A program made the translations under genes and the position numbers. Positions 2,578-59,305 of a stretch of 64,000 nucleotides of DNA are shown piece by piece (within the stretch, counting starts at the first letter, position 1; every line of letters starts with the position of its first letter). Origin of the DNA: Deltaproteobacteria bacterium (GTDB taxonomy: Bacteria; Desulfobacterota; Desulfomonilia; UBA1062). The stretch is taken from contig JAHDRW010000011.1 in NCBI GenBank assembly GCA_018433085.1, forward strand, positions 55,224 through 119,223. Direction: 5' to 3'. The notes beneath the pieces were generated by a model. The model worked only from the letters and a program-made list of their open reading frames with translations, was not told where the DNA came from and did not search any database.

Positions 2578-2605
2578 CTGCTGCCTGCGACCAGGCGTCC
2601 TCCCC

Positions 2606-3967
2606 TCACTGGATGTACATGTCTTCCTCGATCTTCGCCGGCAGGCTCTGCGCCCGCGCCGCAAGGTCGTCTTTTTCCAGGGCGGCCAGGGGGCTGATCT
2701 CGATCAGACTCCGGCCCGAGACCTCCACCCCCAGACCCCTCAGCCAGCCCCTGTGAAGCTCGCTCTGCATGGCCCGGGAGGTCTCCAAGGAGTCTTCCCC
2801 GGTTTTGTTCTTCACCGGGGCGAACTCGCGCTCTCTGAGCACCTCGAGGGTAATCGAATTTTCCGCCATGGGAAGTGCATCGAAAATAAAGGTCTCAAAC
2901 TTTATCCCCGGGGTCTCCACGGGGTTGCCCTTCGAGTCGAGGGCCGGGATGCCCTTCTCTGCCCTATGGAATGGAAGCCTCAGCCCGGAGCCGGTGAGCG
3001 ACTCAACGAAATCGCGCCTGATCATGTGGATAGCACCGTTTCCCGCCCAATAGAGCATGTTCCCCCCATCGTCGACCGCATAGCGCATGTCGTCGCTCAT
3101 GTCGCTGTACTCCACCACGCGGGTCTTCCCGTCGACCTCCGCGATGACGCCCACCTTTTCATTGAAGTCGCGCTTCCTGACCACTTTGGACGACATCTCC
3201 GCGCCCTTGAGGTTGTGCAGGCCGATGAAGAGCGGGTCGCACATCGCAACCAGGGGGTTGTCGACCTGGAAGTAGAAGATCTCTTCGATGCCCTTTGCCC
3301 GCATGATATCGAGGCAGCCGCTCCTTCTCAGGGCGGCGAGCGTGCCCCCGTGGCCGTCCGGGTTCATGAAGAGACCGCCGTCGCGGGAGAGGACGAACCT
3401 GCCTTCAGGGGTGATGGAGGGCAGCATGCCCTGGACGAAGAAGAAGACCTCCTCAGGGTCGAGCCCAAAAAATGAGTGCCGGGCGAAGAAATCACGCGTG
3501 TCCGCGTCGTTGGCGCGCGAGGTCATCACGAACAGGGGCAGGACCCGGGCATACTTTCTCGACAGGGCGAGCACCTTCTCTGCATGGAGCTGGAACAGGC
3601 TCTTGCCGGATACCGGGGTCACCTGGACCACGCCCTTGGGTGCGTCGATGCCCAGCCGGGAGCCCTGGCCGCCCGCCACCACCAGGGCCGCCACCCTGCC
3701 CTTTCTCAGCAGGTCTTCTCCGTGGGCGCGGTAGCGATCGGCCTCGGGGGACGCGGAAAACGAGGCCGGAAACACGGGCACCGGCTTCACCCGCACCAGG
3801 GCAGGCTCCTGATAGAAATGCCTGCCTTCCATCAGTTCCCGGAAGAGGGAAACGTTTATATCCTCAAGATCTTTTTCGATCTCGCTGCGTGAGACAAACC
3901 CGGCCCCGGACTCAAGAAGTTTTGCGATATGATCCTGACCGAGTCGCCGCAATTTTTCTTCGAGCAT
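2606..3967 (-). CDS. UDP-sugar / UDP-N-acetylhexosamine pyrophosphorylase (UDPGP family)
   Basis: N-terminal LGQDHI motif and Gly-rich nucleotide-binding loop LVVAGGQGSRLG, as in the UAP1/UDPGP family. AAGGAG RBS lies 7 nt upstream of the ATG. Confidence 0.7.
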   Translation of the reverse strand: MLEEKLRRLGQDHIAKLLESGAGFVSRSEIEKDLEDINVSLFRELMEGRHFYQEPALVRVKPVPVFPASFSASPEADRYRAHGEDLLRKGRVAALVVAGGQGSRLGIDAPKGVVQVTPVSGKSLFQLHAEKVLALSRKYARVLPLFVMTSRANDADTRDFFARHSFFGLDPEEVFFFVQGMLPSITPEGRFVLSRDGGLFMNPDGHGGTLAALRRSGCLDIMRAKGIEEIFYFQVDNPLVAMCDPLFIGLHNLKGAEMSSKVVRKRDFNEKVGVIAEVDGKTRVVEYSDMSDDMRYAVDDGGNMLYWAGNGAIHMIRRDFVESLTGSGLRLPFHRAEKGIPALDSKGNPVETPGIKFETFIFDALPMAENSITLEVLREREFAPVKNKTGEDSLETSRAMQSELHRGWLRGLGVEVSGRSLIEISPLAALEKDDLAARAQSLPAKIEEDMYIQ

Positions 3968-5204
3968 TCATGATCTCCTTTACGCGTTTTTCGAAGCCGG
4001 TGTCGCGGGGGACATAGAGCCTCACCTCGTCGATCCCGTCGGGTAAGTAGTTCAGCAACAGGGCCCCGTGCGGGTCGTCGTGGGCATAGATATATCCCTT
4101 TCCGTACCCCAGCTCGCGCATGAGCCTGGTCGGCGCGTTGCGCAGAAAGAGGGGCACCTCGGGCGTGCCGGTCTTTCTGATCAGCTCGCGGGTCCGCTTC
4201 TCTGCCATGTAGACGGAGTTGCTCTTGGGCGCGCACGCGAGGTAGACCGCGGCCTGGTAGAGTGCGAGCTCCCCCTCGGGAGAGCCCAGTGTGGTGAACG
4301 CATCCCTGGCGTTGATCGCCATGCGCAGGGCGTTGGGCTCGGCCATGCCGATGTCCTCCGACGCGATGCGGATCATTCTGCGCAGGACGAACAGCCGGTC
4401 TTCCCCCGCCTCGAGCATCCTCCCCAGCCAGTAGACGCTCGCGTTGATGTCGCTTGCGCGCACGCTTTTGTGGAACGCCGAGATGAGGTCGTAGTGGTTC
4501 TCGCCGGTCTTGTCGTGGTAGAGCGGCCTGTCGAGCAGGGCCTTGAGGTCATCGACCTCGACCTGATCTTTATCGATGGTGGTCAGGGCGAGCTCCAGGA
4601 GGTTGAGCGCTGCGCGGGCATCGCCGTCAGCGGCGCGCGACAGGGCCTTGACGGCCTCCGGGGATATGGTTTTTCCCAGCGAGGTCAGATCCGGGTCGAT
4701 CTCCGTGGCCCGCTTGAGGATCTTCTCGACGTCCGAAGGCTTCAGGGCCTTGAACGCGACCACCTGGAGCCGGGAGAGGAGCGGGGAGGTGATGGAGAAC
4801 GAGGGGTTCTCTGTGGTTGCGCCGATCAGGACGATATCGCCCCGTTCTACAAAGGGCAGCAGGGCGTCCTGCTGGACCCGGTTGAACCGGTGCACCTCGT
4901 CGATGAAGACCACCGGGGGCTCCGGGGCGCTCTGCGCGTGTTTGGTTACCCGCCGGATATCCTGGATGCCGCTGGTGACCGCGCTGATGGCGAAGAACGA
5001 GTCCTTGCAGAGCACCTCGATGATGTGCGCGACGCTGCTCTTGCCCGCGCCCGGCGGCCCCCAGAGCATGACGGAGCGGCGATTGCCCGCCGCGAAGCTC
5101 TCGATGAACCTCTTTGCGTCGTCCTGCCCCATGAGCTCGTCGATGCTGTCGGGACGGATCCGGTACGCAAGGGGAGGGGCATGCTTTTCCATACGGTTTT
5201 CCAT
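3912..5204 (-). CDS. rarA: Replication-associated recombination protein A (AAA+ ATPase RarA/MgsA)
   Basis: Walker A GPPGAGKSS, Walker B and sensor FIDEVHRFN, and the conserved RarA C-terminal region. The start is uncertain: candidates are ATG at 5204 or 5192, or the track's TTG at 5222. The 3' end overlaps the next gene by 56 nt. Confidence 0.8.
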   Translation of the reverse strand: MENRMEKHAPPLAYRIRPDSIDELMGQDDAKRFIESFAAGNRRSVMLWGPPGAGKSSVAHIIEVLCKDSFFAISAVTSGIQDIRRVTKHAQSAPEPPVVFIDEVHRFNRVQQDALLPFVERGDIVLIGATTENPSFSITSPLLSRLQVVAFKALKPSDVEKILKRATEIDPDLTSLGKTISPEAVKALSRAADGDARAALNLLELALTTIDKDQVEVDDLKALLDRPLYHDKTGENHYDLISAFHKSVRASDINASVYWLGRMLEAGEDRLFVLRRMIRIASEDIGMAEPNALRMAINARDAFTTLGSPEGELALYQAAVYLACAPKSNSVYMAEKRTRELIRKTGTPEVPLFLRNAPTRLMRELGYGKGYIYAHDDPHGALLLNYLPDGIDEVRLYVPRDTGFEKRVKEIMNARRKIAATRSGSYRKTS

Positions 5205-5530
5205 AAGGATCGTATAGCACAAAAACCAGGGGATAAAAATTTGAATAAATCTGCGAGCAGGGGGTTAAGTAAACCCGGATCGTGACGATAGAAATAAATA
5301 GGTTCTTCAAGATTCATTCCCCGTAGAACCTCCTCATATGTTCGCAGGTCAAAAAGGCCTGCTTTTTTTTTGCCGTTTTCCAGCACCCCTGACGGCACGC
5401 TCCGCCTTATGCCCGAAGAACAATCGCGCAGGCATCCATTTTCAGCGTGGAAAATCGACACCATTCCTCCATGTCAATACAAACATACAAATTTATTTAA
5501 AGTTTGCCATTCAACTCAGGAAATCTATCC

Positions 5531-5559
5531 TTGACAAACCCTTTTGATGCATTATAGAA
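5531..5559 (+). promoter_or_regulatory. Sigma70-type promoter for tRNA-fMet: TTGACA (5531..5536), 17-nt spacer, TATAGA (5554..5559)
   Basis: Consensus -35 hexamer with exact 17-nt spacing to a TATAGA -10, about 19 nt upstream of the mature tRNA 5' end. Confidence 0.4.
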
Positions 5560-5577
5560 GACTCTACAATCAAATGA

Positions 5578-5654
<77 letters not shown>

Positions 5655-6036
5655 AATTTATCTTGTTAATCCTAATCCTAAGACTTATCATTCCGGATAT
5701 CCCCTGAAACAGTGGTGCCTCTTCTTGTTGAGATGAATTACCTCGCCGGTCATCTGTTGTCAGGAGTATCTGAGGAGCCAGCCGTTCATCGACAAGCTCT
5801 TTCTGCACGGAGCTGATAAAAGCCCTAATTTTCACTCAACATTTTTGCACGTTTCAAAAAATCATTCAACAGAGCTTACGGAACTATGATCAGCATAGCA
5901 CTACAGCAGCAAGGTGGAGGTATAAGAAGATAGGCCCTGTATCTTCGACGAGAGCAGCGCCCAGCAGTGCCGCTCTGATGCGAGAAGCGAGCCATGGCAG
6001 GGTTCTGTTATTTCCTTTGAAAAAGCCAATACATCC

Positions 6037-6080
6037 TTGACAGACCGTCTCTTGTATTATATAAGACTGACCGGTCAGTC
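6037..6080 (+). promoter_or_regulatory. Promoter (TTGACA, 17 nt, TATAAG) with an overlapping perfect 16-bp palindrome GACTGACCGGTCAGTC (6065..6080): candidate autoregulatory TetR operator
   Basis: The -35 hexamer lies at 6037..6042 and the -10 at 6060..6065. The palindrome starts at the last -10 base and covers the predicted TSS. A GGAG RBS precedes the TetR ATG at 6109. Confidence 0.45.
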
Positions 6081-6108
6081 ATCATAGAATGGAGTACAGG
6101 GCAATCAC

Positions 6109-7125
6109 ATGACCGGAAAACGTGTCATTCTTGAAAAATCAGGCGGCAGGCGGATTTCGTTTTACGCTGAAGTCGGAAGTTATTTTACGGCAGAAGGGGA
6201 TTTCCATGAGGCCGCCTTTCGCTCCAGCCTGAAAGATCGGCTCTTCGAGGCCGGCGGCGGGGACCAATCCGACAATGCGCGTCTCGATGCGCAGGGGAAG
6301 TGGCTTTCTTCATATCTCCAGGATATTCTCGCCTATCTCCTTGAAAAAGACATGGCTCCGGCCGCGGTCCAACTCTCCGCCGCCGCCATGGACGAGGCCG
6401 GAAAGATGGGGGTGACCAGGGTCGTGCTTCCGCCGCGGCTCCTCGGTGACATCCTGCGGTCAATCTCGCCGGCGGCACCGGAGAAGCCCCAGCACCGTCA
6501 GTCCGCGGATGAAAAGAGGCGCATGATCTATTCCGCCGCGCTCAAGGTTTTCTCCGAGGAAGGCTACCACCAGGCAACCATGGAGAAGATTGCCGCACTC
6601 TCGGGCGTGGCCAAGGGCACGGTATACACCTATTTCAAAAGCAAGGAAGATCTTCTGGACCAGCTTCTGGAGGAATATTATCAGGAAATCGTCAAAAGGA
6701 TCAGCGCGATCTGCGGCAAGGAGACCGACATACTCCAGCAGATCCGCGAGCTGATCGTGTTCTGGGTGCACTTTATCGAGGCAAATCCTCTTGTCTATCG
6801 CCTCATTCAGAGCGAGGCGATATTCCAGCGGCCCGGGGGCAAGACCATGTTCTACGACTACATCGTCTCGCACCTCCCAATGCTCAAGGAGCGCATCGTT
6901 GCCTTGAATCGCGAGCATCGGCTGAAGACCACGAGCTTTTATCCCACCTTCTACGGGGCGCTCGGCTTCATCGACGGCGTTGCCCAGAGATGGTTCCGCT
7001 GCCAGATGGATTATCCCCTGACCGACGAGATCCCCGTTATCCTTGAGGTTCTTCTGAACGGGTTCGTCGGCGAGCACAACAGCAACGCCAGCTATTCTTC
7101 CCCGCCGGAGGCCGAAGACGGGTGA
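6109..7125 (+). CDS. TetR/AcrR-family transcriptional regulator with an unusual ~140-aa N-terminal extension
   Basis: The TetR HTH (IYSAALKVFSEEGYHQATMEKIAALSGVAKGTVYTYFKSKEDLL) begins near residue 150. The promoter/operator and RBS geometry favour the 6109 start. Internal in-frame Met codons (for example at 6346 or 6388) remain alternative starts. Confidence 0.65.
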   Translation: MTGKRVILEKSGGRRISFYAEVGSYFTAEGDFHEAAFRSSLKDRLFEAGGGDQSDNARLDAQGKWLSSYLQDILAYLLEKDMAPAAVQLSAAAMDEAGKMGVTRVVLPPRLLGDILRSISPAAPEKPQHRQSADEKRRMIYSAALKVFSEEGYHQATMEKIAALSGVAKGTVYTYFKSKEDLLDQLLEEYYQEIVKRISAICGKETDILQQIRELIVFWVHFIEANPLVYRLIQSEAIFQRPGGKTMFYDYIVSHLPMLKERIVALNREHRLKTTSFYPTFYGALGFIDGVAQRWFRCQMDYPLTDEIPVILEVLLNGFVGEHNSNASYSSPPEAEDG

Positions 7126-7295
7126 GAGGGAATGGACACGGTCGGGGTGACGACGCAACACTGACAAGGATGCCCCCGTCAGGGGGGCGACGCCGGAAAG
7201 GGCGGCTCCTGTGCCGGCACTGCCATGCCGGCACGATCATGGAGACAGTCCCTGTACCGGCGCCGACCCGATGACGGTACAGCATACACTACTGA

Positions 7296-9026
7296 ATGAA
7301 AGGATACCCGATTATGCAAAAGGAGGAAACAGGAATTTTCGGCAAGGCCAAGGGCAGGAGGGTAGGACCTCAAGGTGCGGACGGTGTGCACGCTTCACAG
7401 TGGTATCCCGCGATGCACCCGGGACGGTCACAGGTGCCGTTCCTGCGTTCTCCCCGGGCGATTACCGGGCACATGAACGCCAGAATCCGCGCGATATGGC
7501 ATGCGAGTGACTACCAGGGCAAGGATTTCAGCCCCTTCGAGGTCTCGTCCATACCGAGCAAGCACAAGCTCGCCCAGGTGCTGGCCTGCGGTCTGAAGGC
7601 CGCAGTGGCGACCTACTCACAGCACTGGCAGGGCATGTATCTTGACTGGACCTTCAACCATCACATCGAGGAGGCCTTTTCGAAATTCGGTATCATGGCG
7701 AATTCGGAAAAGTTCGTGAAAAACGCATTCGCTACCGTGGTGCTCTTCAATACCGGTTATGCCGGAGTGTTCATGGACATGCTCAAAAGCCGGCGCCGTC
7801 TTCTCCCGCCCAGTATGGAGAGCCTCGAAAACCTCGACATGGGCACCTTCGAGCACAACTTGAGGAGCTCGGTCGGCGCGGTGCTCGGAGGCGAGTACGG
7901 GGTGAACGTCATCCGGTGCTCTCTGGCGAAGCCCCTGGTGGCAGAGGCGAACAGGCCGGGCTATGAGGCTCTGCGCGGCGTGGCTTCAGTGGAGGGCATG
8001 GACCCGAAGGCCTCCATCACCTGTATCCTGCAAATCGGGCTCAAGCAGTCCGAAGACCGCGCCAGTTTCGACCAGGAGATGATGGACCTCGCGGCCGCCA
8101 AGATCATCGAGCGCAAGAGCGAACGGCGCAACGCGGATTTATCGCGCCAGGTCCCGGTGGTCGTCATGTCGCGCTATTTTCTCTCCGTGAACCGGGAGCT
8201 GCGAAAGGCCGGGCTGCACGGCATCGTCAAGACCCTGGTGATCGAAGGGAACACTCCCCCGGGCAAGACCATGCTTGCATCCATGAGGGATTGCATAGGG
8301 GACGGGCTCAGGAAGTGCTATGACGACATCCTTGCGGCATATCCGGCCAATCTGGCCGACAGCGGCACCGATCTGGACCTCGGCACGTACCGCGACATGG
8401 CGAAGCTCGCGTGCGACCTCGGACTGAAGGTGCTCAAGCCACGCGAAGACGGACACAAGATGCTCTTCATCTATATCGACATGGAGGCCCTCCAGAAAAA
8501 GGGCATCCCGATCGATGTCGCGGAGCAGACAGCGGGCAGCGCCATTCAGGCCGGGCTCAACTCCGTGCATCTCGATGGGACCACGAATGTACCGGACGAG
8601 CAGGACCTGCTTTACGGCGCCTTCTGTATGACCGGCCCGATCCACTCGGCCGAGCTCCTGGATACGGACGATCAGCTCAAGCGAGGGTGGGGCCAGGGAT
8701 TCTGGAACATCCTTGCGCCGGAGCTGCCGCCGACCAACAAGATGCTCGCCCTTATCGCCGTCTCGGCCAAGAGCGAGCAGGATGCCTTTATCGCCGAGAT
8801 ACAGGCATTGAACGAGCGGAAATCGGTCAACGAGATCTTCTGGTACAAGACCTGGAACCATCCGCAGGGAAAGCGTCTGGACATCCCTCAATGGGTATCC
8901 TATGCCCATGTGCTCGACGTGCTCCCGATTCCCGGTAACTCCATTGCCCATGCGGAAGAGCCTATCCCGGAGCACCTGCCCGAAGATCACCCCCTGACCA
9001 GGGAGTTCAGGCAGATGATTAAGTGA
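7296..9026 (+). CDS. Hypothetical protein (576 aa) with no recognisable motif; start uncertain
   Basis: Long ORF with coding-like composition, ended by a rho-independent terminator. An AAGGAGG lies just inside the 5' end, so the true start may be further downstream (for example the ATG at about 7470). Confidence 0.5.
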   Translation: MKGYPIMQKEETGIFGKAKGRRVGPQGADGVHASQWYPAMHPGRSQVPFLRSPRAITGHMNARIRAIWHASDYQGKDFSPFEVSSIPSKHKLAQVLACGLKAAVATYSQHWQGMYLDWTFNHHIEEAFSKFGIMANSEKFVKNAFATVVLFNTGYAGVFMDMLKSRRRLLPPSMESLENLDMGTFEHNLRSSVGAVLGGEYGVNVIRCSLAKPLVAEANRPGYEALRGVASVEGMDPKASITCILQIGLKQSEDRASFDQEMMDLAAAKIIERKSERRNADLSRQVPVVVMSRYFLSVNRELRKAGLHGIVKTLVIEGNTPPGKTMLASMRDCIGDGLRKCYDDILAAYPANLADSGTDLDLGTYRDMAKLACDLGLKVLKPREDGHKMLFIYIDMEALQKKGIPIDVAEQTAGSAIQAGLNSVHLDGTTNVPDEQDLLYGAFCMTGPIHSAELLDTDDQLKRGWGQGFWNILAPELPPTNKMLALIAVSAKSEQDAFIAEIQALNERKSVNEIFWYKTWNHPQGKRLDIPQWVSYAHVLDVLPIPGNSIAHAEEPIPEHLPEDHPLTREFRQMIK

Positions 9027-9109
9027 TATCAGACTCCTTACGAGTTGTATGAATGAGCAAACAGACAACTTGTGTGATACAAGGCAACCGAGATACTGAT
9101 TTGTGATAT

Positions 9110-51905: not shown

Positions 51906-51992
51906 GCCGGAGTGGTGGAAGTGGTAGACGCGTCGGACTCAAAATCCGATGAGCGCAAGCTCGTGGGGGTTCAAGTCCCTTCTCCGGCACCA
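51906..51992 (+). tRNA. tRNA-Leu (anticodon CAA), type II with a long variable arm, CCA encoded
   Basis: Acceptor stem GCCGGAG/CTCCGGC, D-arm GTGGTGGAAGTGGTAGACGC, anticodon stem-loop TCGGA-CTCAAAA-TCCGA and a 16-nt variable arm. Its 3' 55 nt are duplicated 6.3 kb downstream. Confidence 0.85.
51938..51992 (+). repeat. attL: a 55-bp core inside the 3' half of tRNA-Leu, identical to 58284..58338
   Basis: An exact 55/55 match, with divergence immediately on both sides of the repeat. Confidence 0.85.
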
Positions 51993-52022
51993 TATTTTTA
52001 TTAAAGATTTTCCAAAAGAAGG

Positions 52023-53129
52023 TCATCTCTTAAACCCATTGATAACAGTAAGTGTGCCCAAATTGTGCCCATCGCCCGATCGGGAGAGGGTATCGTCGTT
52101 CTCCTGATACATGCTGGAGACCTTCTCGCAGGCAAGCCGGATATCATCTTCACTGGTAATATTGTACCTGTCGAATATGCTTCGTGTCTTGTGACCCGAT
52201 ATCCTCATGGCTACCACTTCAGACACCCCCGAACGAACCATATTCCTCACTGCCGTTCTTCTCAAGTCGTGGAATAAACGGCCCTCAAGATTGGTTTGCT
52301 TGAGCGCCTTCTCCCACACAGCTCGGAAGGTCTTGATTAGGGGCTCATCCTCTTCGTGATTGTAGAAGACATAAGTGCACTCCGGGTTTGTTGCGTCACG
52401 GATCTTCTTCTGTGTGAGAATGGTATCGAAGAGCTCACCATACATATAAACCACCCTGCCTTCACCGTTTTTTGTCGATCCCGGTTCCAGGACTATTCGA
52501 TGAGCCCAGATATCCACCTGATGCCACTGGAGGGCCAGGAGTTCCCCTCGCCTCATGCCCGTGTGATAGGCTGCAATCAGCAACGGCCTGGCGTAAGCAG
52601 GCAGGGCATCCCGGAGTTTCACGTATTCGTCAAACTCAAAGAAGCCTGTTCTCGCGTTGCTTTCTTTCAGCTTAGGGATATGCGGCACCATCATCACCTT
52701 TGGTGGTGTATGTCTTGAGCCAATAATGAAAGCCCTATGAAGAGCGCTCAGTTCGCGGTTAATAGTGCCATTCTTCGCTCCTGCTTCCCTGCGGGTCAGA
52801 ATATATTGCTGAACACTGTTTGTTGTGACCCGGCAAGCCCTGGCATCTCCGAAGAATTCCTTGAGATGATTAACGCTCGATTCTAGCCGCACCAGAGATT
52901 TCCTCTCCATTAGGCGATATTCGGAGATTGTATCCTCCAAGAGTTCCTTCACTGTTGTGCGTTCTACTTGAAGCCCTTGGAAGGTTCCTTGCGCAATGGA
53001 GCCTTCCCTGAGCTTCAGGAGCTTTTCAGCCACAGTCTTTTTCTCCGAGTGTGAAGATTCCCGATACGGTTTTCCATCACGATAATACTTGATCCACCAG
53101 ACATTGCCTCGCTGAAAAACGCTTCCCAT
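52023..53129 (-). CDS. int: Tyrosine-type site-specific integrase
   Basis: N-terminal SAM-like/arm-binding region and C-terminal catalytic domain (...RHTPPKVMMVPH...HDLRRTAVRNMVRSG...GHKTRSIFDRY). It lies next to the tRNA. Confidence 0.85.
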   Translation of the reverse strand: MGSVFQRGNVWWIKYYRDGKPYRESSHSEKKTVAEKLLKLREGSIAQGTFQGLQVERTTVKELLEDTISEYRLMERKSLVRLESSVNHLKEFFGDARACRVTTNSVQQYILTRREAGAKNGTINRELSALHRAFIIGSRHTPPKVMMVPHIPKLKESNARTGFFEFDEYVKLRDALPAYARPLLIAAYHTGMRRGELLALQWHQVDIWAHRIVLEPGSTKNGEGRVVYMYGELFDTILTQKKIRDATNPECTYVFYNHEEDEPLIKTFRAVWEKALKQTNLEGRLFHDLRRTAVRNMVRSGVSEVVAMRISGHKTRSIFDRYNITSEDDIRLACEKVSSMYQENDDTLSRSGDGHNLGTLTVINGFKR

Positions 53130-53281: not shown

Positions 53282-53482
53282 TCAAAAAGGATAGGTTGTC
53301 TTGCTCTTCTCAATCCACTTGTCCATATCGTTCACATCAAGGAGCACGCGCCTTCCATCACGGACACAGGGAATCTTGCCCGCCCAGACCATTTCTCGGA
53401 TTGCCCAGGGAGTTCGGCCAAGGTAGGTTGCGGACTCCTTTATGGAATACAATCTCTTTAATGGTCTTGTCTTTTCTGCCAT
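53282..53482 (-). CDS. alpA: AlpA-family phage transcriptional regulator / excisionase-like HTH
   Basis: The 66-aa product has RLYSIKESATYLGRTPWAIREMVWAGKIPCVRDGRRVL, the AlpA/MerR-like HTH pattern. It sits directly upstream of int. Confidence 0.7.
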   Translation of the reverse strand: MAEKTRPLKRLYSIKESATYLGRTPWAIREMVWAGKIPCVRDGRRVLLDVNDMDKWIEKSKTTYPF

Positions 53483-53687: not shown

Positions 53688-53870
53688 TTTCCCAGTTGAC
53701 GTGCTGCATAAGATTACCCCCTACCCCTGGTAATACTAGAGAGTACTGTCACCCATGCCCCCCATTGGGTCTTTTGGGGATTTATGGGCATGTCTGCCTG
53801 CAAGGTATCATGATTGCCTGTTTTGCCGCTTCTCTGGGCTTTTCTTTCGGCTGTCATCTATGCCCCCCTT

Positions 53871-54461
53871 TCACTGCTGCCTTTTAGGTCTTCGGCTGTC
53901 ACCCACGACAGTGAGTCGGCTATCGCCCATGTCAGTCGAAAATGTTTTATCTCCCGCCACTGCCCGCAATCTCTTTCCGGCCGTCCTGGCCTGGTTGTAT
54001 ATTGCCAGAGAGTCGCTGAAGCACACCCCCTTCGGTGCAGTCCTTTGGGTAAAAGCAGAGGTTCCATAATGCTTCCAGTCATCAATAAGGTCATACTCGC
54101 TGCATTCCTTATGACCACGAAACTGGCCGCCTTGCTTGGCAATTTCGAGGAAGCCGTGCTCTATGAGTTCCTTAAGGCAACGCCTGAACTGCTTTGCATT
54201 AATGCCGTATGCCGCCGCTTCACTGTATGGAAGTTTCAGCCCGGTATTATGGTAAACAGGCTTCTTCTTGCGGCCTTGTTTATCGGTGTGCCATCCTCGC
54301 CTTGAGAGAAATAGCATCAGGATGTACTTGGCTGTGTGCGTTAACGAGATGAAAGCCTCAGACCGAAGCATCTCCTGAGGCATCCGCAGATCGCGTTCAT
54401 GATACCACTTATTCTGTTTCAGATTCTTTATGTCCGGTGATTTCATAGGTTCTCCCTGCAA
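53871..54461 (-). CDS. Hypothetical protein with a winged-helix-like segment; possible replication or regulatory function
   Basis: Segment YSEAAAYGINAKQFRRCLKELIEHGFLEIAKQGG resembles a wHTH. No catalytic motif is present. A start at the internal Met (54446) is possible. Confidence 0.4.
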   Translation of the reverse strand: MQGEPMKSPDIKNLKQNKWYHERDLRMPQEMLRSEAFISLTHTAKYILMLFLSRRGWHTDKQGRKKKPVYHNTGLKLPYSEAAAYGINAKQFRRCLKELIEHGFLEIAKQGGQFRGHKECSEYDLIDDWKHYGTSAFTQRTAPKGVCFSDSLAIYNQARTAGKRLRAVAGDKTFSTDMGDSRLTVVGDSRRPKRQQ

Positions 54462-54577
54462 TGCGGCAAACCTGCCGGGTGATGCTGAGGGAGATGCAGC
54501 ACCATCTTTTCACGTGGTTCCCTGCCACGCGCCCGGCAAGCGCCATTGACTTTGTAAAGCCTGAGTGTGCTTCAGAA

Positions 54578-54961
54578 TTATATCCGGCTTGATGAATCAT
54601 GCACTTTCTCCCAGCGGGGGCGAAAAACACCCCTGCCGGTGATGTTTTTTTGAGAAAGAGGGGCATTCTGGTGGTTCTCTCTTGCCTGCCTGAAGGGGTG
54701 AAGTGGGCAGTCACTACTTGGGCACAGACGAACTTCAGAAGGTTGCCCTGCGCAACACCACAGACAGTAAGACCGAATCGCCCTGTTTCTGTCTTTCGGG
54801 TTTTGTTTCCCTCTGCCCATCCTGAAAGGATAAAGGGCACAATCTGTCATGGGACACTCGGCTACATCCTTCGTGCTCCTGGCTGAACAATCAAGGCATT
54901 TCTCTCGGATAGCTTGCCGCCTGTTGAGTTTACCCCTTAGTTTACAAGACTTTTTATTCAT
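54578..54961 (-). CDS. Small Cys-rich protein with two tandem C4 zinc-ribbon repeats
   Basis: Internal duplication: AIREKCLDCSARSTKDVAECPMTDCALYPFR and AIRSYCLWCCAGQPSEVRLCPSSDCPLHPFR. Each copy is C-x2-C-x9-C-P-x3-C-x-L-[YH]-P-F-R. Confidence 0.5.
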   Translation of the reverse strand: MNKKSCKLRGKLNRRQAIREKCLDCSARSTKDVAECPMTDCALYPFRMGRGKQNPKDRNRAIRSYCLWCCAGQPSEVRLCPSSDCPLHPFRQARENHQNAPLSQKNITGRGVFRPRWEKVHDSSSRI

Positions 54962-54972
54962 GCCGCTTCGTC

Positions 54973-55209
54973 CTACACAACTCCCGCTTCATTTGTTTTA
55001 TGCTCGTCTGCATATGCCTCATCCTCGCTCAATCCCAGGCAGGAGCAGAGTTTCTTGACTCTCTTATCACCCAGCTTAGGCCTGTCGATGCCTGCACTGA
55101 TTTTGTAGAGCATCCCCGGCGATACACCTGCATCCCACGCGATCTGATAAAGAGGCTTCCCTGATTCCTTTACGCTTTTCAGCGCTTTCATGAACTTCTC
55201 GCTAACCAT
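54973..55209 (-). CDS. Cro/CI-type (XRE-like) HTH DNA-binding protein
   Basis: HTH segment KPLYQIAWDAGVSPGMLYKISAG. The start was moved to the ATG at 55209. The gene lies divergent from the resolvase across an AT-rich promoter region. Confidence 0.5.
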   Translation of the reverse strand: MVSEKFMKALKSVKESGKPLYQIAWDAGVSPGMLYKISAGIDRPKLGDKRVKKLCSCLGLSEDEAYADEHKTNEAGVV

Positions 55210-55714
55210 TTCGTTTCCCCTTTGTTGGCTTGTCGCCCATTGCTCTGTTTCCCCTGATGATATTTTTAAGTTTTCTCTCAAGTTTTTCTCTCATCTGCCG
55301 AATATATTTTTATTCTGCGCGTCTATATTCCTTATCGTCTGAAGTCTAGAGTGCATCTAGTAGAAAATAAGAAAAAAGATCTCCTCAGTTGCTCGCTAGC
55401 CTTGTTTTTTCTCCGCTAATGAGTAAGGCAATTGTTAGGACTGCCTAGTGCCTTTGCTCTGTAGATATTCAGTAAATACCACCATTGCTTGGCCGAATAT
55501 TTCAGGTTTTATCAGGTTGTCATGGAATAACTCCTCTTTAGGTACTGAAACTTAAGTTATCTAAAGTAATTGATACGCTATTTGATCGACACTAGATCCC
55601 TTAACCAGACCAGGCTTTTTTACACACCGGACGGTATGTAAAAACCAATGGTTGACTATGGATGATAATTGTATTAGATTTATTGGAGATAATTGATATA
55701 TGGAGGTGAGGGCT

Positions 55715-56389
55715 ATGAGATATGTTATTTATCTGAGGGTAAGCACGGATGAGCAGGCAGACAGCAAGGCAGGGCTCAATGCTCAGTTGGATTCCTGCAG
55801 GGCGCACATTAAACGAAATAGTGGTGAATGCCTTGATGTCTTTTCTGACGAGGGAATCAGCGGAGCCGCAGGCTTGGAGAAAAGGCCCGGATTGCTCCAA
55901 GCCATTGCTTCACTCGACAAGGGTGACACCCTATTGGTTGCCAAACGGGACCGGCTCGGAAGAGATCCTATCGTAACGGCCATGATTGAGAGCGCCATTG
56001 CCCGGAAGAAGGCAAGGGTAGTTTCAGCGGCGGGGGAAGGCACGGATGGTGATAGCCCTTCCGATGTTCTCATGAGAAGGATGATAGATGCCTTTGCGGA
56101 ATACGAACGATTAATCATCAAGGCCCGGACATCGAGTGCATTGCAGGCCAAGAAGACGCGAAATGAGCGTGTGGGCTCCATTCCTTACGGCTTCAGGCTT
56201 TCTGGTGACGGCGTACACATTGAAGAGAACCCGGCAGAGCAGGAGGTTATAACCGAGATCAGGAGACTTGGAACGGCAGGACTTAACCTTCCGGCCATAT
56301 GCAGAGAGCTTGAACGAAAGGGATTCACCACCAGGACGGGCAAGGCATTCCTGCCCGTACAGGTTCAGAGGGTATTGAAAGCGGCATGA
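55715..56389 (+). CDS. Serine recombinase (resolvase/invertase family)
   Basis: N-terminus MRYVIYLRVSTDEQ with the catalytic Ser, followed by DTLLVAKRDRLGRD and a C-terminal recombinase/HTH extension. A GGAGGTGAGGG RBS is present. Confidence 0.8.
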   Translation: MRYVIYLRVSTDEQADSKAGLNAQLDSCRAHIKRNSGECLDVFSDEGISGAAGLEKRPGLLQAIASLDKGDTLLVAKRDRLGRDPIVTAMIESAIARKKARVVSAAGEGTDGDSPSDVLMRRMIDAFAEYERLIIKARTSSALQAKKTRNERVGSIPYGFRLSGDGVHIEENPAEQEVITEIRRLGTAGLNLPAICRELERKGFTTRTGKAFLPVQVQRVLKAA

Positions 56390-56721
56390 GCAAGAAGGCA
56401 ATCAACATGGATATGGTGCGGGAAGCCAGGGCAAACCTTGAGCGTATCGCCAGGGAGCACCCGGAGCTTACGAACCTGTCCGGTGATGATGTGGAACGAT
56501 TATTACAGGGAGTGTTCAACGAAATGGTAGACAAAGACAAACTGACCTTCTCTCTTGGAGAGGCAGCGGAGGTTCTGGGGCTTCACAAGGAATACCTGAG
56601 GCGTAAAATCAAAGACGGTTCTCTCAAGGCCATGAAGACCGGGAAGCAGTACATCATCTCACGGCCAGACCTGCAGGCTTACTATTCAAAGCATGGCGGC
56701 GGCAAGCTGTTCGATGATTGA
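56386..56721 (+). CDS. Excisionase-family helix-turn-helix DNA-binding protein
   Basis: C-terminal FSLGEAAEVLGLHKEYLRRKIKDGSLKAMKTGKQYIISRPDLQAYY matches the excisionase-family HTH. The ATG overlaps the resolvase stop (ATGA). Confidence 0.6.
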   Translation: MSKKAINMDMVREARANLERIAREHPELTNLSGDDVERLLQGVFNEMVDKDKLTFSLGEAAEVLGLHKEYLRRKIKDGSLKAMKTGKQYIISRPDLQAYYSKHGGGKLFDD

Positions 56722-57181
56722 TTTCAGACAATAGAGACTTGCATCGCTGCCCTCTGCGGTCAAGTGGCAAGGATGTTAGCAAATATTAGCATCAAAGGAG
56801 CCCTCGATAATAAGTAACAAGAAGGGAAATCATCAGTGTCCGAGATTGTTGACAAATGTTTACATTCAGGAAGCCCTTGATTATAAGAGACCGGATACAG
56901 CGAGAAGACCGCAGCCAATATAGCGTCAGAGAACCTTAGAAAACCATATATTCAGGAAGCTCTCCGCGAACTCCGCGAAAAATTGGCTCAGAAAACCGCA
57001 TTGTATACCGAGAAGACCGCTAAAGATATCTCATACCAAGACAACAATTATAGTAAATATATCTAAGCCTGATGCACAGCGGTATTCTCTTTTTTATCTT
57101 AATCATACACATTGTCCCTTGCAACAGAGACTTTTCTTCTTTATTAATAATACAGTGTTATTCTTGTTTAGGAGGACTGAA

Positions 57182-57541
57182 ATGAGGTATTTGATAGCCA
57201 TTGTCTGTATGCTTTCCCTGTCCGGGTGCGCCGTGAATGCTACCGGCATCAGTAGGGATACCGGCGAAACTTTGTCTATCCACTATCAGAGTAATGCTAT
57301 AACGAACAAAATCTCTGCCGCTGCCGGAGATGAGTCGTTCAGGGGTAAGATAGTCTCCACGGGTGGCGGGACTATTTCCGATGAATACGGCAACCGAGTC
57401 AAAATCTCCGGGAACACCTACAGGGCTGTTTTTGTCGGAGACAGAGGCCGCACCATGAGGTGTGAGCTGTGCGGTGGCCTTGCAAGCGGTGTCGGCACCT
57501 GTATTACATCGGATGGGGAAGAGTTCGATGTTATGTGGTAG
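57182..57541 (+). CDS. Hypothetical lipoprotein (120 aa)
   Basis: Lipobox MRYLIAIVCMLSLSGCAV. A GGAGGA RBS is present. No known domain. Confidence 0.5.
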   Translation: MRYLIAIVCMLSLSGCAVNATGISRDTGETLSIHYQSNAITNKISAAAGDESFRGKIVSTGGGTISDEYGNRVKISGNTYRAVFVGDRGRTMRCELCGGLASGVGTCITSDGEEFDVMW

Positions 57542-57571
57542 AAGCGTAATATCTCTAACTCTGTAGTCGTT

Positions 57572-58045
57572 ATGAGAGGTTGGGTCTATATAATTACGAA
57601 CAAAGCAATGCCGGGTCTTGTTAAAATTGGGTTTTCAATGAGAGATCCTGTAAATCGCGCATCCGAACTCGATAACACAGGCTCACCCCATCCTTATGTT
57701 GTTGAGTATGATATGCTTATTGAAGACCCGCAACAGCTTGAAAAGCAAGTTCATGAGACTCTTAAGAATGCGAATGAAGGGAAAGAATGGTTCCGTTGCT
57801 CAGTGCATGATGCGATAAAAGAAATCCAGAAGGCGTCGTTGGGTAAATTCATATATCAGAACTATACTAATAACGAGAAAGAAAATGACAGGGTTGTTTA
57901 TTGGCATAAAGAGATAGATATGGAACGCCCCCCATCCAAAACTGCCCAAGATACACAATCACCTCTAAGACAGAAAGAAGTGTATGACTCGACTGAAAAA
58001 CTGAGATTATGGCAAGAGAAGGTCTATAAGGCCAAAAAGCCCTGA
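57572..58045 (+). CDS. T5orf172 / GIY-YIG-like domain protein
   Basis: WVYIITNKAMPGLVKIGFSMRDPVNRASELDNTGSPHPYVVEY...EWFRCSVHDA matches the T5orf172 (GIY-YIG-related) domain pattern. Confidence 0.6.
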   Translation: MRGWVYIITNKAMPGLVKIGFSMRDPVNRASELDNTGSPHPYVVEYDMLIEDPQQLEKQVHETLKNANEGKEWFRCSVHDAIKEIQKASLGKFIYQNYTNNEKENDRVVYWHKEIDMERPPSKTAQDTQSPLRQKEVYDSTEKLRLWQEKVYKAKKP

Positions 58046-58283
58046 TTCACATTTTCCCCAGATTAGGAATGCTCCCCTATGCTGTAAGGGGGAAATTGAT
58101 AGTTTTCAAATATCGGTCAATCCCATTATTCATGGGAAAAAGGAGTGTGCCCAAATTGTGCCCACGACGGCTAAATTCTTCCCAATTCCTACCAACTCCT
58201 ACCAACTAGCCGAATTGCTTAACCGATTGAAATCATTTGCCAGTGCGCCTTTGCAGGCTAGTAATATCAAACGGTTAATGCTC

Positions 58284-58338
58284 TCAAAATCCGATGAGCG
58301 CAAGCTCGTGGGGGTTCAAGTCCCTTCTCCGGCACCAC
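58284..58338 (+). repeat. attR: a 55-bp direct repeat of the tRNA-Leu 3' half
   Basis: Identical to 51938..51992 and ending with the CCA-equivalent bases. The flanks diverge. Confidence 0.85.
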
Positions 58339-58861
58339 ATCTTTCTAATCGGTCTGAGGGCGCCGACATTTTTTTCGCAGGTCCACCGAGTGTATTGTTT
58401 ACCTCCACGCTTTTCACTCCAGGAGGAAGACGCGGAAATCATTACCAGGTCCATAGCCCTCCCGGTCTGGACCTCGAGTCCTGATATATTCACGGTTGCC
58501 GCTCATAAAGGACCATGCTGTCCTGAGGAGCCGAACTCGCGTAGTGGTATGGAGTAGAAAGCCTCCGATTCCCGGGAATAAGAAAAAACCGAGCCCTGGA
58601 TTAAGAGCATACCGATATCCTTTCAGTATTCTCCTGCCTGAGAATGTGAACTCGTCCCCGGATTCCCCCGAGGAGAAAAATCTCAAAGGACGGGGTCGAT
58701 TCTCATGGCGTTATTGCATAAGGGTGGTAAACTTACCATTCCCATTTTTGGTAAACTTTTATCTTCCCGTTGACAATAATACCGATTAATCAAAGAAGAC
58801 ATCGGCTATCGAAGGGGGGATTTCTCGGTTCCTTTCCTGGTGGAATTCAAGCAGGGGGAGT

Positions 58862-59305
58862 ATGGAGGGATTGATTCGTGCGGCTGTCGGGCGTTTCCGG
58901 TTCGAGATCATCAATCCTTTCGAAGTCGGCAACGGACGCATAGCGCGGGCTCTCACGGACATGGCCCTTGCCCAGGACGATTCTCAGAAGCACAGGTATT
59001 ACAGCTTGTCATCCCAGATCATGGAGGAGCGGGAGAGCTGCTGCGATGTCCTGGAAGCCTGTCAGAAGGGGGCCAGCGACATCACCCCGTGGCTTGTCTG
59101 GTTCCTGGAATGTTTCTCCCGGGCCATTGACCGGTCCGAGCTCCTCCTATCCGGAGTCATCAGAAAGGCGAGCTTCTGGAGGATGCATGCACAGACATCA
59201 CTGAACGAGAGGCAGCACAAGGTCATCAATAGGCTTCTCGATGCAGGGCCGAATGGTTTCGAAGGAGGCCTTACCACAAGGAAGTACGCTTCGTGGCCAA
59301 AGTGA
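58862..59305 (+). pseudogene. Fic-family protein remnant (5'-truncated, motif His replaced by Asn)
   Basis: FRFEIINPFEVGNGRIARAL corresponds to the Fic motif HPFxxGNGR, with N in place of H. The roughly 100-aa N-terminal helical region is absent and no upstream in-frame continuation exists. Confidence 0.5.

Follow-up and report, generated by a model that had tools for sequence, protein, structure and literature searches.

Do the two genes that close a small integrative island in an uncultured Desulfomonilia bacterium form a functional module, or did they arrive there separately? The question is raised by a stretch of 64,000 nucleotides (positions 55,224 to 119,223 of contig JAHDRW010000011.1, assembly GCA_018433085.1), hereafter called the window, which contains an island of 6.35 kb bounded by a 55-nt exact repeat of the 3′ end of a tRNA-Leu gene. 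A sequence-only reading of the window had singled out the last two island genes, encoding a lipoprotein and a protein with a T5orf172 nuclease-like domain, as a possible minimal defence or counter-defence module. No conserved co-occurrence of the two was found from either side; the pair occurs only in copies of this one island, and the two genes are very probably independently acquired cargo. The full statement, in which the functions suggested below for both proteins are included, we still consider probable. The features concerned are as follows (lengths of proteins in amino acids, aa).

57182-57541, + strand: lipoprotein gene, 119 aa, with a predicted signal peptide and a mature domain of about 103 aa, allele class A
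57572-58045, + strand: T5orf172 protein gene, 157 aa, supported by Pfam, PADLOC, alignment and an AlphaFold2 (AF2) model
57542-58130, + strand: variant-specific cassette made up of the T5orf172 gene and a weak 3′ hairpin, delimited by blastn boundaries, GC content and folding

The tandem arrangement that had been described, on the + strand, with a gap of exactly 30 nt and at the end of the island, was confirmed by these coordinates; both genes end the island. The length of 157 aa was also correct, while the 120 aa given for the lipoprotein had included the stop codon and should be 119. Both open reading frames (ORFs) are genuine genes and not chance ORFs, since the lipoprotein has homologues and is under purifying selection (ratio of nonsynonymous to synonymous divergence, dN/dS, 0.11-0.29), and the head of the T5orf172 protein hardly varies between phyla. 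A strong AGGAGG Shine-Dalgarno sequence lies 8 nt upstream of the lipoprotein start. The N-terminus of the T5orf172 protein, MRGWVYIITN, agrees with the N-termini of 36 homologues, and the start giving 157 aa is therefore correct; the JGI gene call, of 145 aa, starts at Met13.

Contexts were read for all six close lipoprotein clusters. The identical lipoprotein (cluster P0001) was found only in copies of this island, and the T5orf172 gene was always next to it where the contig was long enough. A second cluster (P0003, 66% aa identity; 23 contigs read) belongs to sister islands, L007-L014, with a backbone 98% identical to window positions 53742-57038. These carry genes for a 226-aa protein with two transmembrane (TM) segments and for a 68-aa protein between a relic of a small terminase subunit (terS) gene and the lipoprotein gene; 3′ of the latter they have a 211-nt spacer, located at 5146-5356 in L010, with a canonical terminator (GCCCCGCCGGGGC followed by a T-run), and no T5orf172 gene. 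The lipoprotein of cluster P0004 (63% aa) defines a third island variant, L020, with the same backbone. The closest non-identical relative (P0002, 83% aa) and one further cluster (P0006, 62%) were found in phage, at loci L015, L016, L018 and L101, and two distant members, P0204 of Methylomonas montana and P0203, in prophages (L102 and L103). Among the non-identical lipoprotein homologues with readable context (L007-L014, L020, the four phage loci and the two prophages), none had an adjacent standalone T5orf172 gene.

Relatives of the T5orf172 protein were collected by a pattern-plus-tblastn scan with one genome per species, which gave 66 loci in Nitrospira, Desulfobacterota, Beta- and Gammaproteobacteria, Ignavibacteriota, Patescibacteria and others. 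None of the 66 had a lipoprotein-family gene within ±4 kb (hidden Markov model search, E≤1), and a same-strand upstream ORF with a lipobox of any kind was present at only 1-2 of them. A batch scan of 118 nearest neighbours of these relatives revealed no recurrent partner, and individual contexts were varied, with ribonucleotide reductase and HigB at one locus, an HD-domain protein at another and a Mur ligase with cyanate lyase at a third. No record of the exact 157-aa protein was found outside this island variant. Thus, the idea of a new two-gene defence system does not hold, and the pair should not be entered in lists of candidate systems.

Comparison with the sister islands showed how the two genes came to lie side by side. 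Homology is lost precisely at the stop codon of the lipoprotein gene and regained at about 58131, and positions 57542-58130 are therefore a discrete cassette that replaces the 211-nt terminator-bearing spacer. GC content is 39-43% in the cassette (40% at third codon positions, GC3), compared to 52-53% in the lipoprotein gene and backbone and 61% (GC3 85%) in a host gene; the two genes themselves have 41% (T5orf172) and 52% (lipoprotein). In the history that we propose, the T5orf172 gene would have entered the variable end of the island recently, as a low-GC cassette of one gene, and the lipoprotein would be a conserved accessory gene of the island family that is exchanged with phage.

The opposite proposal is that the two proteins work together as a minimal two-gene defence or counter-defence system, for example as an envelope sensor or anchor with a nuclease, a kind of split SNIPE. 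No hairpin was found by folding in the 30-nt gap, and a promoter and terminator scan of 56700-58400 detected nothing beyond shuffled expectation. Because the terminator has been displaced and the gap has no hairpin, transcription from the lipoprotein promoter probably continues into the T5orf172 gene; one transcript from two same-strand genes 30 nt apart weighs against independence, as it makes a functional link in this one variant conceivable. A joint system would also fit the cargo hotspot, which holds a restriction-modification (R-M) system in a sister island, the TM tails of 27 of 120 homologues of the window protein, and the membrane-bound SNIPE nuclease of this family, which acts at the envelope during phage DNA entry (PMC13190303). 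Against it stand the lack of co-occurrence in either direction, with the exact pair in one island variant only, the difference in GC content (41% and 52%), and the cassette edge, which coincides with the lipoprotein stop codon and replaces the terminator, so that adjacency results from insertion. The predicted topology also separates the partners. The host genes that flank the island fall into the same 90%-identity clusters as genes of Desulfomonilia metagenome-assembled genomes from anaerobic digesters, and the host is therefore diderm. Since the lipoprotein is predicted to be exported to the periplasm, the T5orf172 protein lacks both a signal peptide and a TM segment (the highest Kyte-Doolittle score of any 19-mer in its tail is −1.04), and the cassette encodes no membrane-spanning third component, the two proteins would lie on opposite sides of the inner membrane. 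We regard a two-gene system as extremely unlikely.

The variable end of the island had been described as the place where defence cargo is typically found, and this was supported by L020, where the slot upstream of the lipoprotein gene (2475-7243) holds an 849-aa T5orf172-helicase and a split Eco57I/MmeI-type methyltransferase, scored by PADLOC as Type IIG REase_MTase_IIG (1.9e-28 and 2.4e-50). It is thus reasonable to say that defence cargo sits in the attR-proximal slot. The 849-aa protein has an N-terminal T5orf172 domain fused to a ResIII helicase-like region and is encoded about 3 kb from the lipoprotein gene, on the other strand; with it, T5orf172 is used a second time, and in an unrelated way, in the same island family. 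These tRNA islands of about 6 kb, with backbones 97-98% identical, swap cargo at two adjacent slots, and they document cargo turnover in an uncultured anaerobic-digester lineage. In L007-L014 the commonest cargo upstream of the lipoprotein gene is the gene for the 226-aa protein with two C-terminal TM segments (L010 3362-4042) together with that for the conserved 68-aa protein (L010 4339-4545); neither protein matched any family. In L009, the 226-aa gene is interrupted by an insertion sequence element (rve_3 transposase).

What could the T5orf172 protein do as a single gene? Its assignment to this family, proposed from a few N-terminal motifs, was borne out by profile searches. PF10544 matched with E=1.4e-13 (51.7 bits, the cutoff being 20; residues 3-86 aligned to profile positions 1-98 of 101) and MUG113, PF13455, with E=7e-10 (39.7 bits against 22.3), and no other Pfam family matched at E≤1. 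The best match in the defence libraries was PDC-S57 of PADLOC (PDLC05041, E=5.1e-23, residues 2-102 on profile positions 5-107 of 212), followed by a weaker match to PD-Lambda-1 (PDLC03977, E=2.8e-7, residues 2-87 on positions 355-448 of 496). Over the first 95 or so residues, 37 aligned homologues share 22 invariant positions, among them Y6, K18, G20 and the run K71-E72-W73-F74, and R29 is nearly invariant. By position and spacing, R29 and E72 may correspond to the catalytic Arg and Glu of characterized enzymes (R27 and E75 of I-TevI, E180 of Odn, E414 of SNIPE), and Y6 to the Tyr of the first motif.

The AF2 model of the protein had a predicted local distance difference test (pLDDT) score of 79, with 86-96 in the head. 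The order of the predicted head elements (strands 4-9, 16-22 and 43-49; helices 26-33, 53-63 and 78-89) fits the beta-beta-alpha-beta-alpha-alpha core of GIY-YIG enzymes, and the model continues with a disordered linker at about 100-130 and a terminal helix at 131-155. Direct tests of the GIY-YIG relationship gave no significant result: in Foldseek searches Slx1 recurred at ranks 2-9 with weak E values of only 0.4-1.3, and hhalign against I-TevI returned a probability below 1%. A sequence-profile search for homologues of solved structure found none for either island protein, the sole matches being of low complexity and to the T5orf172 tail. As the direct tests were not significant, the nuclease assignment rests on family membership and the Pfam clan, together with published work on related proteins (PMC8263062, PMC13190303).

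The tail, residues 91-157 approximately, is hydrophilic, free of Cys and without a Pfam match. Besides the 27 homologues with TM tails, the 120 tails surveyed included 40 with Zn-ribbon-like Cys pairs, 49 of other kinds (TPR, Sel1, coiled coil) and 4 that were very short, and none of the 120 matched the tail of the window protein. An origin of this tail as the frameshifted relic of a longer homologue was considered and rejected, as tblastn of the 120 homologues against all frames of 57500-58300 gave significant matches to the head only. The T5orf172 subfamily is bacterial and widespread, with a near-invariant head of about 95 aa and hypervariable tails.

The window gene is a new member of a known candidate family, PDC-S57, which likewise combines an N-terminal T5orf172 head with a variable C-terminal part in one gene with no obligate partner; only the head matches, in the N-terminal half of the profile, and the 67-aa tail is unique to the window protein. 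The weaker match leads to SNIPE (PD-lambda-1), a GIY-YIG nuclease anchored to the membrane, which cuts phage DNA as it is injected (Saxton et al., Nature 2026, PMC13190303). The nuclease domain of SNIPE is its most conserved region while the adaptor regions are variable, the E414A substitution abolishes defence, and release from the membrane makes the protein toxic (PMC13190303). The name T5orf172 is not used in that paper, and the link of SNIPE to the window protein is the PADLOC match to PD-Lambda-1. Both have a related nuclease domain and follow a common design, a conserved nuclease with diversified non-catalytic regions, as seen in the TM tails of 27 of the 120 homologues. However, SNIPE is a protein of about 490 aa in which an N-terminal TM segment is combined with a DUF4041 domain that binds DNA and the tape measure protein, whereas the window protein has 157 aa and neither of these, and carries its nuclease domain at the N-terminus, in the reverse order. 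Lacking the TM segment and DUF4041, the window protein is not, judged by its sequence, a SNIPE.

We propose that the head would act as a GIY-YIG-type DNA nuclease, that the tail would set where or when the head acts, as in SNIPE and Odn, and that the gene would serve as stand-alone cargo against phages or other mobile genetic elements. Neighbours of its relatives include BrxL, a Type I restriction endonuclease, Old/GajA/AriA-like proteins, SduA, PIN-domain proteins, integrases and transposases. Several points count against such a role. Many of the relatives lie among housekeeping genes (GatB, LptE, HrcA), and the window protein has no recognisable DNA-binding or membrane-targeting domain. PDC-S57 is a computational candidate for which a literature search found no experimental validation, and membership in it says little on the function of the window protein. 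In a wider sense, the stand-alone T5orf172 subfamily, with TM, Zn-ribbon, TPR or unique tails, links the SNIPE mechanism to many single-gene candidates of the PDC-S57 kind.

Instead of defending its carrier, the gene could be a selfish, free-standing gene of the homing-endonuclease type that was copied downstream of the lipoprotein gene with no benefit to island or host. T5orf172 homing endonucleases occur in ICP1, T5-like and other phages, at genetic-exchange boundaries (PMC10448857), and Odn of phage ICP1 is a chimeric T5orf172 nuclease that requires its conserved Glu (PMC8263062). The window protein has the same Pfam domain as Odn and the phage homing endonucleases (ICP1 Gp53, Gp121, Gp130 and Gp174, and those of T5-like phages), has R29 and E72 as putative equivalents of the conserved Arg and Glu implicated in catalysis, and is, like them, the sole product of a cassette inserted at a gene boundary of a mobile element. 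The clean edges and foreign GC content of this cassette, and the occurrence of relatives as scattered singletons at unrelated chromosomal sites, would suit such a gene. However, 87% of phage T5orf172 homing endonucleases carry Zn-finger DNA-binding domains of the CapR, DUF723 or DUF4397 type (PMC10448857), and the window protein has neither these nor a RepA_N DNA-binding domain, its tail being without Cys or any detectable DNA-binding domain. ICP1-type genes lie in phage genomes, near essential genes and often in multiple copies, whereas the window gene lies in a chromosomal island and its subfamily is bacterial: it is scarce in viral data, with 6 loci in IMG/VR against 66 in species-representative genomes, and T5orf172 heads of sequenced phages are at most 41% identical to that of the window protein. 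Furthermore, the cassette replaces 211 nt instead of entering an intact target, and the hypervariable TM, TPR and Sel1 tails of the relatives resemble adaptors and not sequence readers. A purely selfish gene thus appears distinctly unlikely to us.

The lipoprotein raises a different question, since it is the gene that the island family holds in common with phage. Its lipobox, L-S-G-C at residues 13-16, ends the signal peptide, with MRYLIAIVCMLSLSG preceding the Cys, and fits the pattern [LVI][ASTVI][GAS]C, and the lipobox Cys is invariant in 26 of 26 aligned family members. The protein is predicted to be exported and lipid-anchored, and its mature domain is predicted to be a small up-and-down beta-barrel in the cell envelope. 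Cys94 and Cys107, also invariant in the 26 members, could form a periplasmic disulfide. The absence of a known domain, noted earlier, was upheld: no Pfam, NCBIfam or PADLOC family matched, MliC and PliC of Pfam included. The only NCBIfam match was to NF038104, through the signal peptide alone (E=0.029), and the only PHROG match was to a family of unknown function (E=0.0026). The family, which consists of the 6 close clusters and about 45 distant relatives, is undescribed, with no Pfam or NCBIfam model.

In the phage loci, one of which is an IMG/VR viral genome, the lipoprotein gene has a P22-type portal gene on one side and the downstream morphogenesis genes on the other, and is antisense to them. 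IMGVR_UViG_3300009667_000273 represents this phage. In the two prophages it lies directly downstream of a CI-type repressor gene (HTH_3 and Peptidase_S24) in the same orientation, a position that suggests expression in lysogens. No other island protein was found when the lipoprotein-bearing phage were searched for them; the lipoprotein alone is common to both.

L018 1839-2162 and L101 8037-8360: phage segments homologous to window 57218-57541
L102 7001-7396 (Methylomonas montana, CP129884) and L103 3212-3607: distant lipoprotein members in prophages

Over 57218-57541 the window lipoprotein gene is 88% identical in nucleotide sequence to the genes of phage L018 and L101, compared to 73.5% identity to the sister islands, and the phage-island DNA homology begins at 57218, at the lipobox. 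Two classes of mature domain can be recognised. Class A comprises the window island and the phage cluster P0002 (88% identical), and class B the islands of P0003 and P0004 and the phage cluster P0006 (80-83% identical), with 60-64% identity between the classes. The signal peptides follow a different pattern and cluster by replicon type: those of the two phage alleles are 100% identical and share 50% identity with those of the islands. This discord between mature domains and signal peptides indicates repeated exchange between phage and island at the signal-peptide/mature junction. Synonymous divergence (dS) is 0.4-1.8 in the lipoprotein gene, far above the 0-0.04 of the backbone, and the alleles are therefore old and were introduced by recombination. 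Two allele classes are thus each held by both phage and island populations, which is the most interesting by-product of this analysis, and their recombination at the signal-peptide junction points to an envelope function that bears specificity.

Small lipoproteins that exclude superinfecting phages include Llp of T5, Cor of phi80 and N15, and Ltp of TP-J34. Like these, the present family comprises small phage lipoproteins, of predicted envelope location, encoded against the direction of their neighbours or beside a prophage repressor, and it is also found on a non-phage element that would gain from excluding phages; unlike them, it shows no sequence similarity to the known proteins, differs in size and has a predicted beta-barrel fold. 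From the repressor-adjacent position, the antisense position in phage and the allele structure, we infer that the lipoprotein may be a host-type envelope fold captured by mobile elements, which would act in superinfection exclusion or would mask a receptor or entry step against related phages, a service useful to phage and island equally. A role in envelope-level conversion or exclusion is the likeliest function of the lipoprotein in our view, and we hold it tentatively. We know of nothing of the superinfection-exclusion kind in this phylum, and the protein would be a testable candidate for it.

Several findings speak against exclusion. The Cor model NF047972 did not match the window lipoprotein (one distant family member matched it at E=0.083), PADLOC gave no match, and no similarity to known exclusion lipoproteins was seen; none of 50,697 sequenced phages matched the lipoprotein; and a beta-barrel is a generic fold. 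For the distant branch, a degenerate DNA pattern hit no viral and 57 metagenomic loci, 42 of which were verified, and this branch is mostly found in chromosomal surroundings (UvrB, acyl-CoA dehydrogenases, ribosomal proteins), which implies that the fold family is not intrinsically phage-related. The chromosomal setting of this branch and the lack of similarity to known exclusion proteins favour an explanation in which the lipoprotein is a generic envelope protein, involved in stress tolerance or the inhibition of lysozyme or another enzyme, or else in phage lysis or release, and hitch-hikes on the island. However, wherever the context could be read, the six close clusters all lie on mobile elements, either islands or phage, and the place directly after a CI-type repressor gene, on the same strand, is the usual one for lysogen-expressed genes. 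The phage copies run antisense to the morphogenesis cluster that surrounds them and are distant from the lysozyme gene, and the family has no Pfam match to the inhibitors MliC and PliC. Two ancient allele classes kept in both phage and island are expected of an interaction that bears specificity and not of a housekeeping protein. On balance, we consider a generic envelope or lysis protein unlikely, and exclusion remains our preferred, if tentative, reading. A spanin or other lysis gene in particular was rejected as a candidate identity, since the protein has no C-terminal TM segment and its gene is far from the phage lysozyme gene and antisense to structural genes.

A bolder proposition combines both proteins: the lipoprotein would found an undescribed family of allele-specific exclusion proteins, traded between podovirus-like phage and a Desulfomonilia island, and the T5orf172 protein would be the smallest working nuclease of the SNIPE type. 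We think it improbable that both parts hold. If they did, the two classes of mature domain would represent two phage specificity types, the island would protect its host with a copy of the phage's own exclusion gene, and the 157-aa protein would be a bare nuclease head recruited to incoming DNA by its own short tail.

The rest of the island was annotated as follows, helix-turn-helix being abbreviated to HTH and attachment sites to att.

51906-51992, + strand: tRNA-Leu(CAA) gene, the integration target (ARAGORN; Rfam tRNA, 51.4 bits)
51938-51992, + strand: attL, the 55-nt exact core in the 3′ half of the tRNA-Leu(CAA) gene (direct repeat D1, exact match)
52023-53129, − strand: tyrosine integrase, 368 aa, adjoining attL (PHROG 1 integrase, E=1.5e-51)
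52051-52071, + strand: first copy of the 21-nt exact direct repeat AGTGTGCCCAAATTGTGCCCA, within the 3′ end of the integrase gene (repeat family D4, 100%)
53282-53482, − strand: excisionase/AlpA-like HTH_17 protein, 66 aa (Pfam HTH_17, E=8.7e-10; PHROG excisionase and regulator families)
53871-54461, − strand: 196-aa backbone protein (weak match to PHROG 186, DnaD-like helicase loader, E=2.6e-5; 98% nucleotide identity in sister islands)
54578-54961, − strand: Cys-rich backbone protein, 127 aa (ORF, kept in sister islands)
54973-55281, − strand: HTH regulator-like backbone protein, 102 aa (weak HTH_31/HTH_3 and PHROG 8 matches; kept in sister islands)
55700-56389, + strand: serine recombinase (Pfam Resolvase, E=2.7e-32)
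56386-56721, + strand: second HTH_17 protein, its gene overlapping that of the serine recombinase (Pfam HTH_17, E=8.3e-10)
56887-57066, + strand: terS relic, N-terminal HTH part only (Terminase_2, E=5.7e-8, score 33.9 bits with the cutoff at 26.1, covering profile positions 26-65 of 141)
58144-58164: second copy of the 21-nt repeat, near attR (repeat family D4)
58283-58344, + strand: attR, the duplicated tRNA-Leu 3′ end with its exact core at 58283-58337 (direct repeat D1)

The position of the pair at the attR end, as had been claimed, agrees with the direct repeat at 58283-58344 and with the integrase next to attL. Repeat D1 is 62 nt long and 97% identical, including the 55-nt exact core, and occurs at 51938-51999 and 58283-58344. 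GC content is about 60% in the host flanks but only 37-55% between the att repeats. The integrase is also a Phage_integrase of Pfam, as matched on identical copies in contigs L001 and L002. The 21-nt repeat consists of two units of TGTGCCCA, with one copy close to each att site, and the attR-side copy lies inside 58131-58372, a segment that aligns at 86-92% with the sister islands; the repeats are candidate arm-type integrase-binding sites. The 196-aa backbone protein is possibly a replication initiator or loader, going by its weak match, and small ORFs without assignment are also present between the island repeats. The serine recombinase and the second HTH_17 protein are the final backbone genes ahead of the cargo, with dS of 0-0.04 to the sister islands. 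The terS relic encodes 'GYSEKTAANIASENLRKPYIQEALRELREKL...' without a start codon in three-frame translation and is partly duplicated internally (repeats D7 and D8, at 56861/56947 and 56896/57004); every island variant retains it, at 98% conservation, and the conserved backbone ends there, with sister homology stopping at 57038 (blastn).

An integrase, att sites and an excision regulator are thus present, as in satellites, while the packaging side amounts to the truncated terS relic alone and one gene, that of the lipoprotein, is common with phage. Small satellites and islands with variable defence cargo are known as phage-inducible chromosomal islands (PICI), minimal islands of the PICMI type and P4-like hotspots. 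The present island resembles PICI and PICMI in being integrated at a tRNA gene, in its size of about 6 kb, in its integrase, AlpA/Xis-like HTH protein, regulators and terS-derived sequence, and in a hotspot with alternative cassettes (TM protein, Type IIG-like R-M, T5orf172) and tandem copies at the L020 att site. Unlike them, it has no intact packaging, capsid-remodelling or primase/helicase gene, and it has an extra serine recombinase.

Given this anatomy, the T5orf172 protein might be seen as a weapon or regulator that a satellite directs against its helper phage, comparable to the nucleases of the Vibrio satellite PLE and to its regulator CapR, which derives from a homing endonuclease gene. 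The element is satellite-like at 6.35 kb, with an integrase, an excisionase-like HTH protein, regulators, a terS relic and a phage-shared gene, and PLE and ICP1 do exchange domains derived from T5orf172 homing endonucleases (PMC10448857; 10.1101/2020.11.28.402263). CapR of the PLE satellite, however, is the opposite half of such an enzyme, a Zn-finger without the T5orf172 domain (10.1101/2020.11.28.402263), and for this reason it is not a precedent for the window protein. Most island variants have no T5orf172 gene, which argues that it is not part of the life cycle of the element. The terS relic was tried as a link to the lipoprotein-bearing phage and showed no similarity to the phage terminase region; nothing except the lipoprotein is common to both, and a helper phage for the island is hypothetical. 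We hold a weapon against a helper to be highly unlikely, and stand-alone cargo against phages or other mobile elements remains the preferred reading of the T5orf172 gene.

Two Logan contigs, L001 (6350 nt) and L002 (6349 nt), have the length of the island period and could be taken for an excised circle. They were judged to be an assembly artefact and not circles, because they begin and end exactly 30 nt within the 55-nt att core, as is expected when a de Bruijn graph with k=31 breaks at a repeat. In the sister island L020, attR is followed by another integrase 3′ end (8724-9049, 96% identical to window 51938-52263), and islands therefore occur in tandem at the tRNA-Leu gene. No further island or att copy was found within the 64-kb window. 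Outside it, on the same 128.8-kb NCBI contig, a 223-aa fragment (P0182) falls in the same 90%-identity cluster as the island integrase, and a second, degraded island copy may be present there. Just beyond attR, about 500 bp without assignment (58345-58860) precede a 147-aa ORF (58862-59305), the N-terminus of which matches only the last third of Fic/DOC (profile positions 61-93 of 93); this ORF may represent either a gene that has been truncated or what is left of an older insertion.

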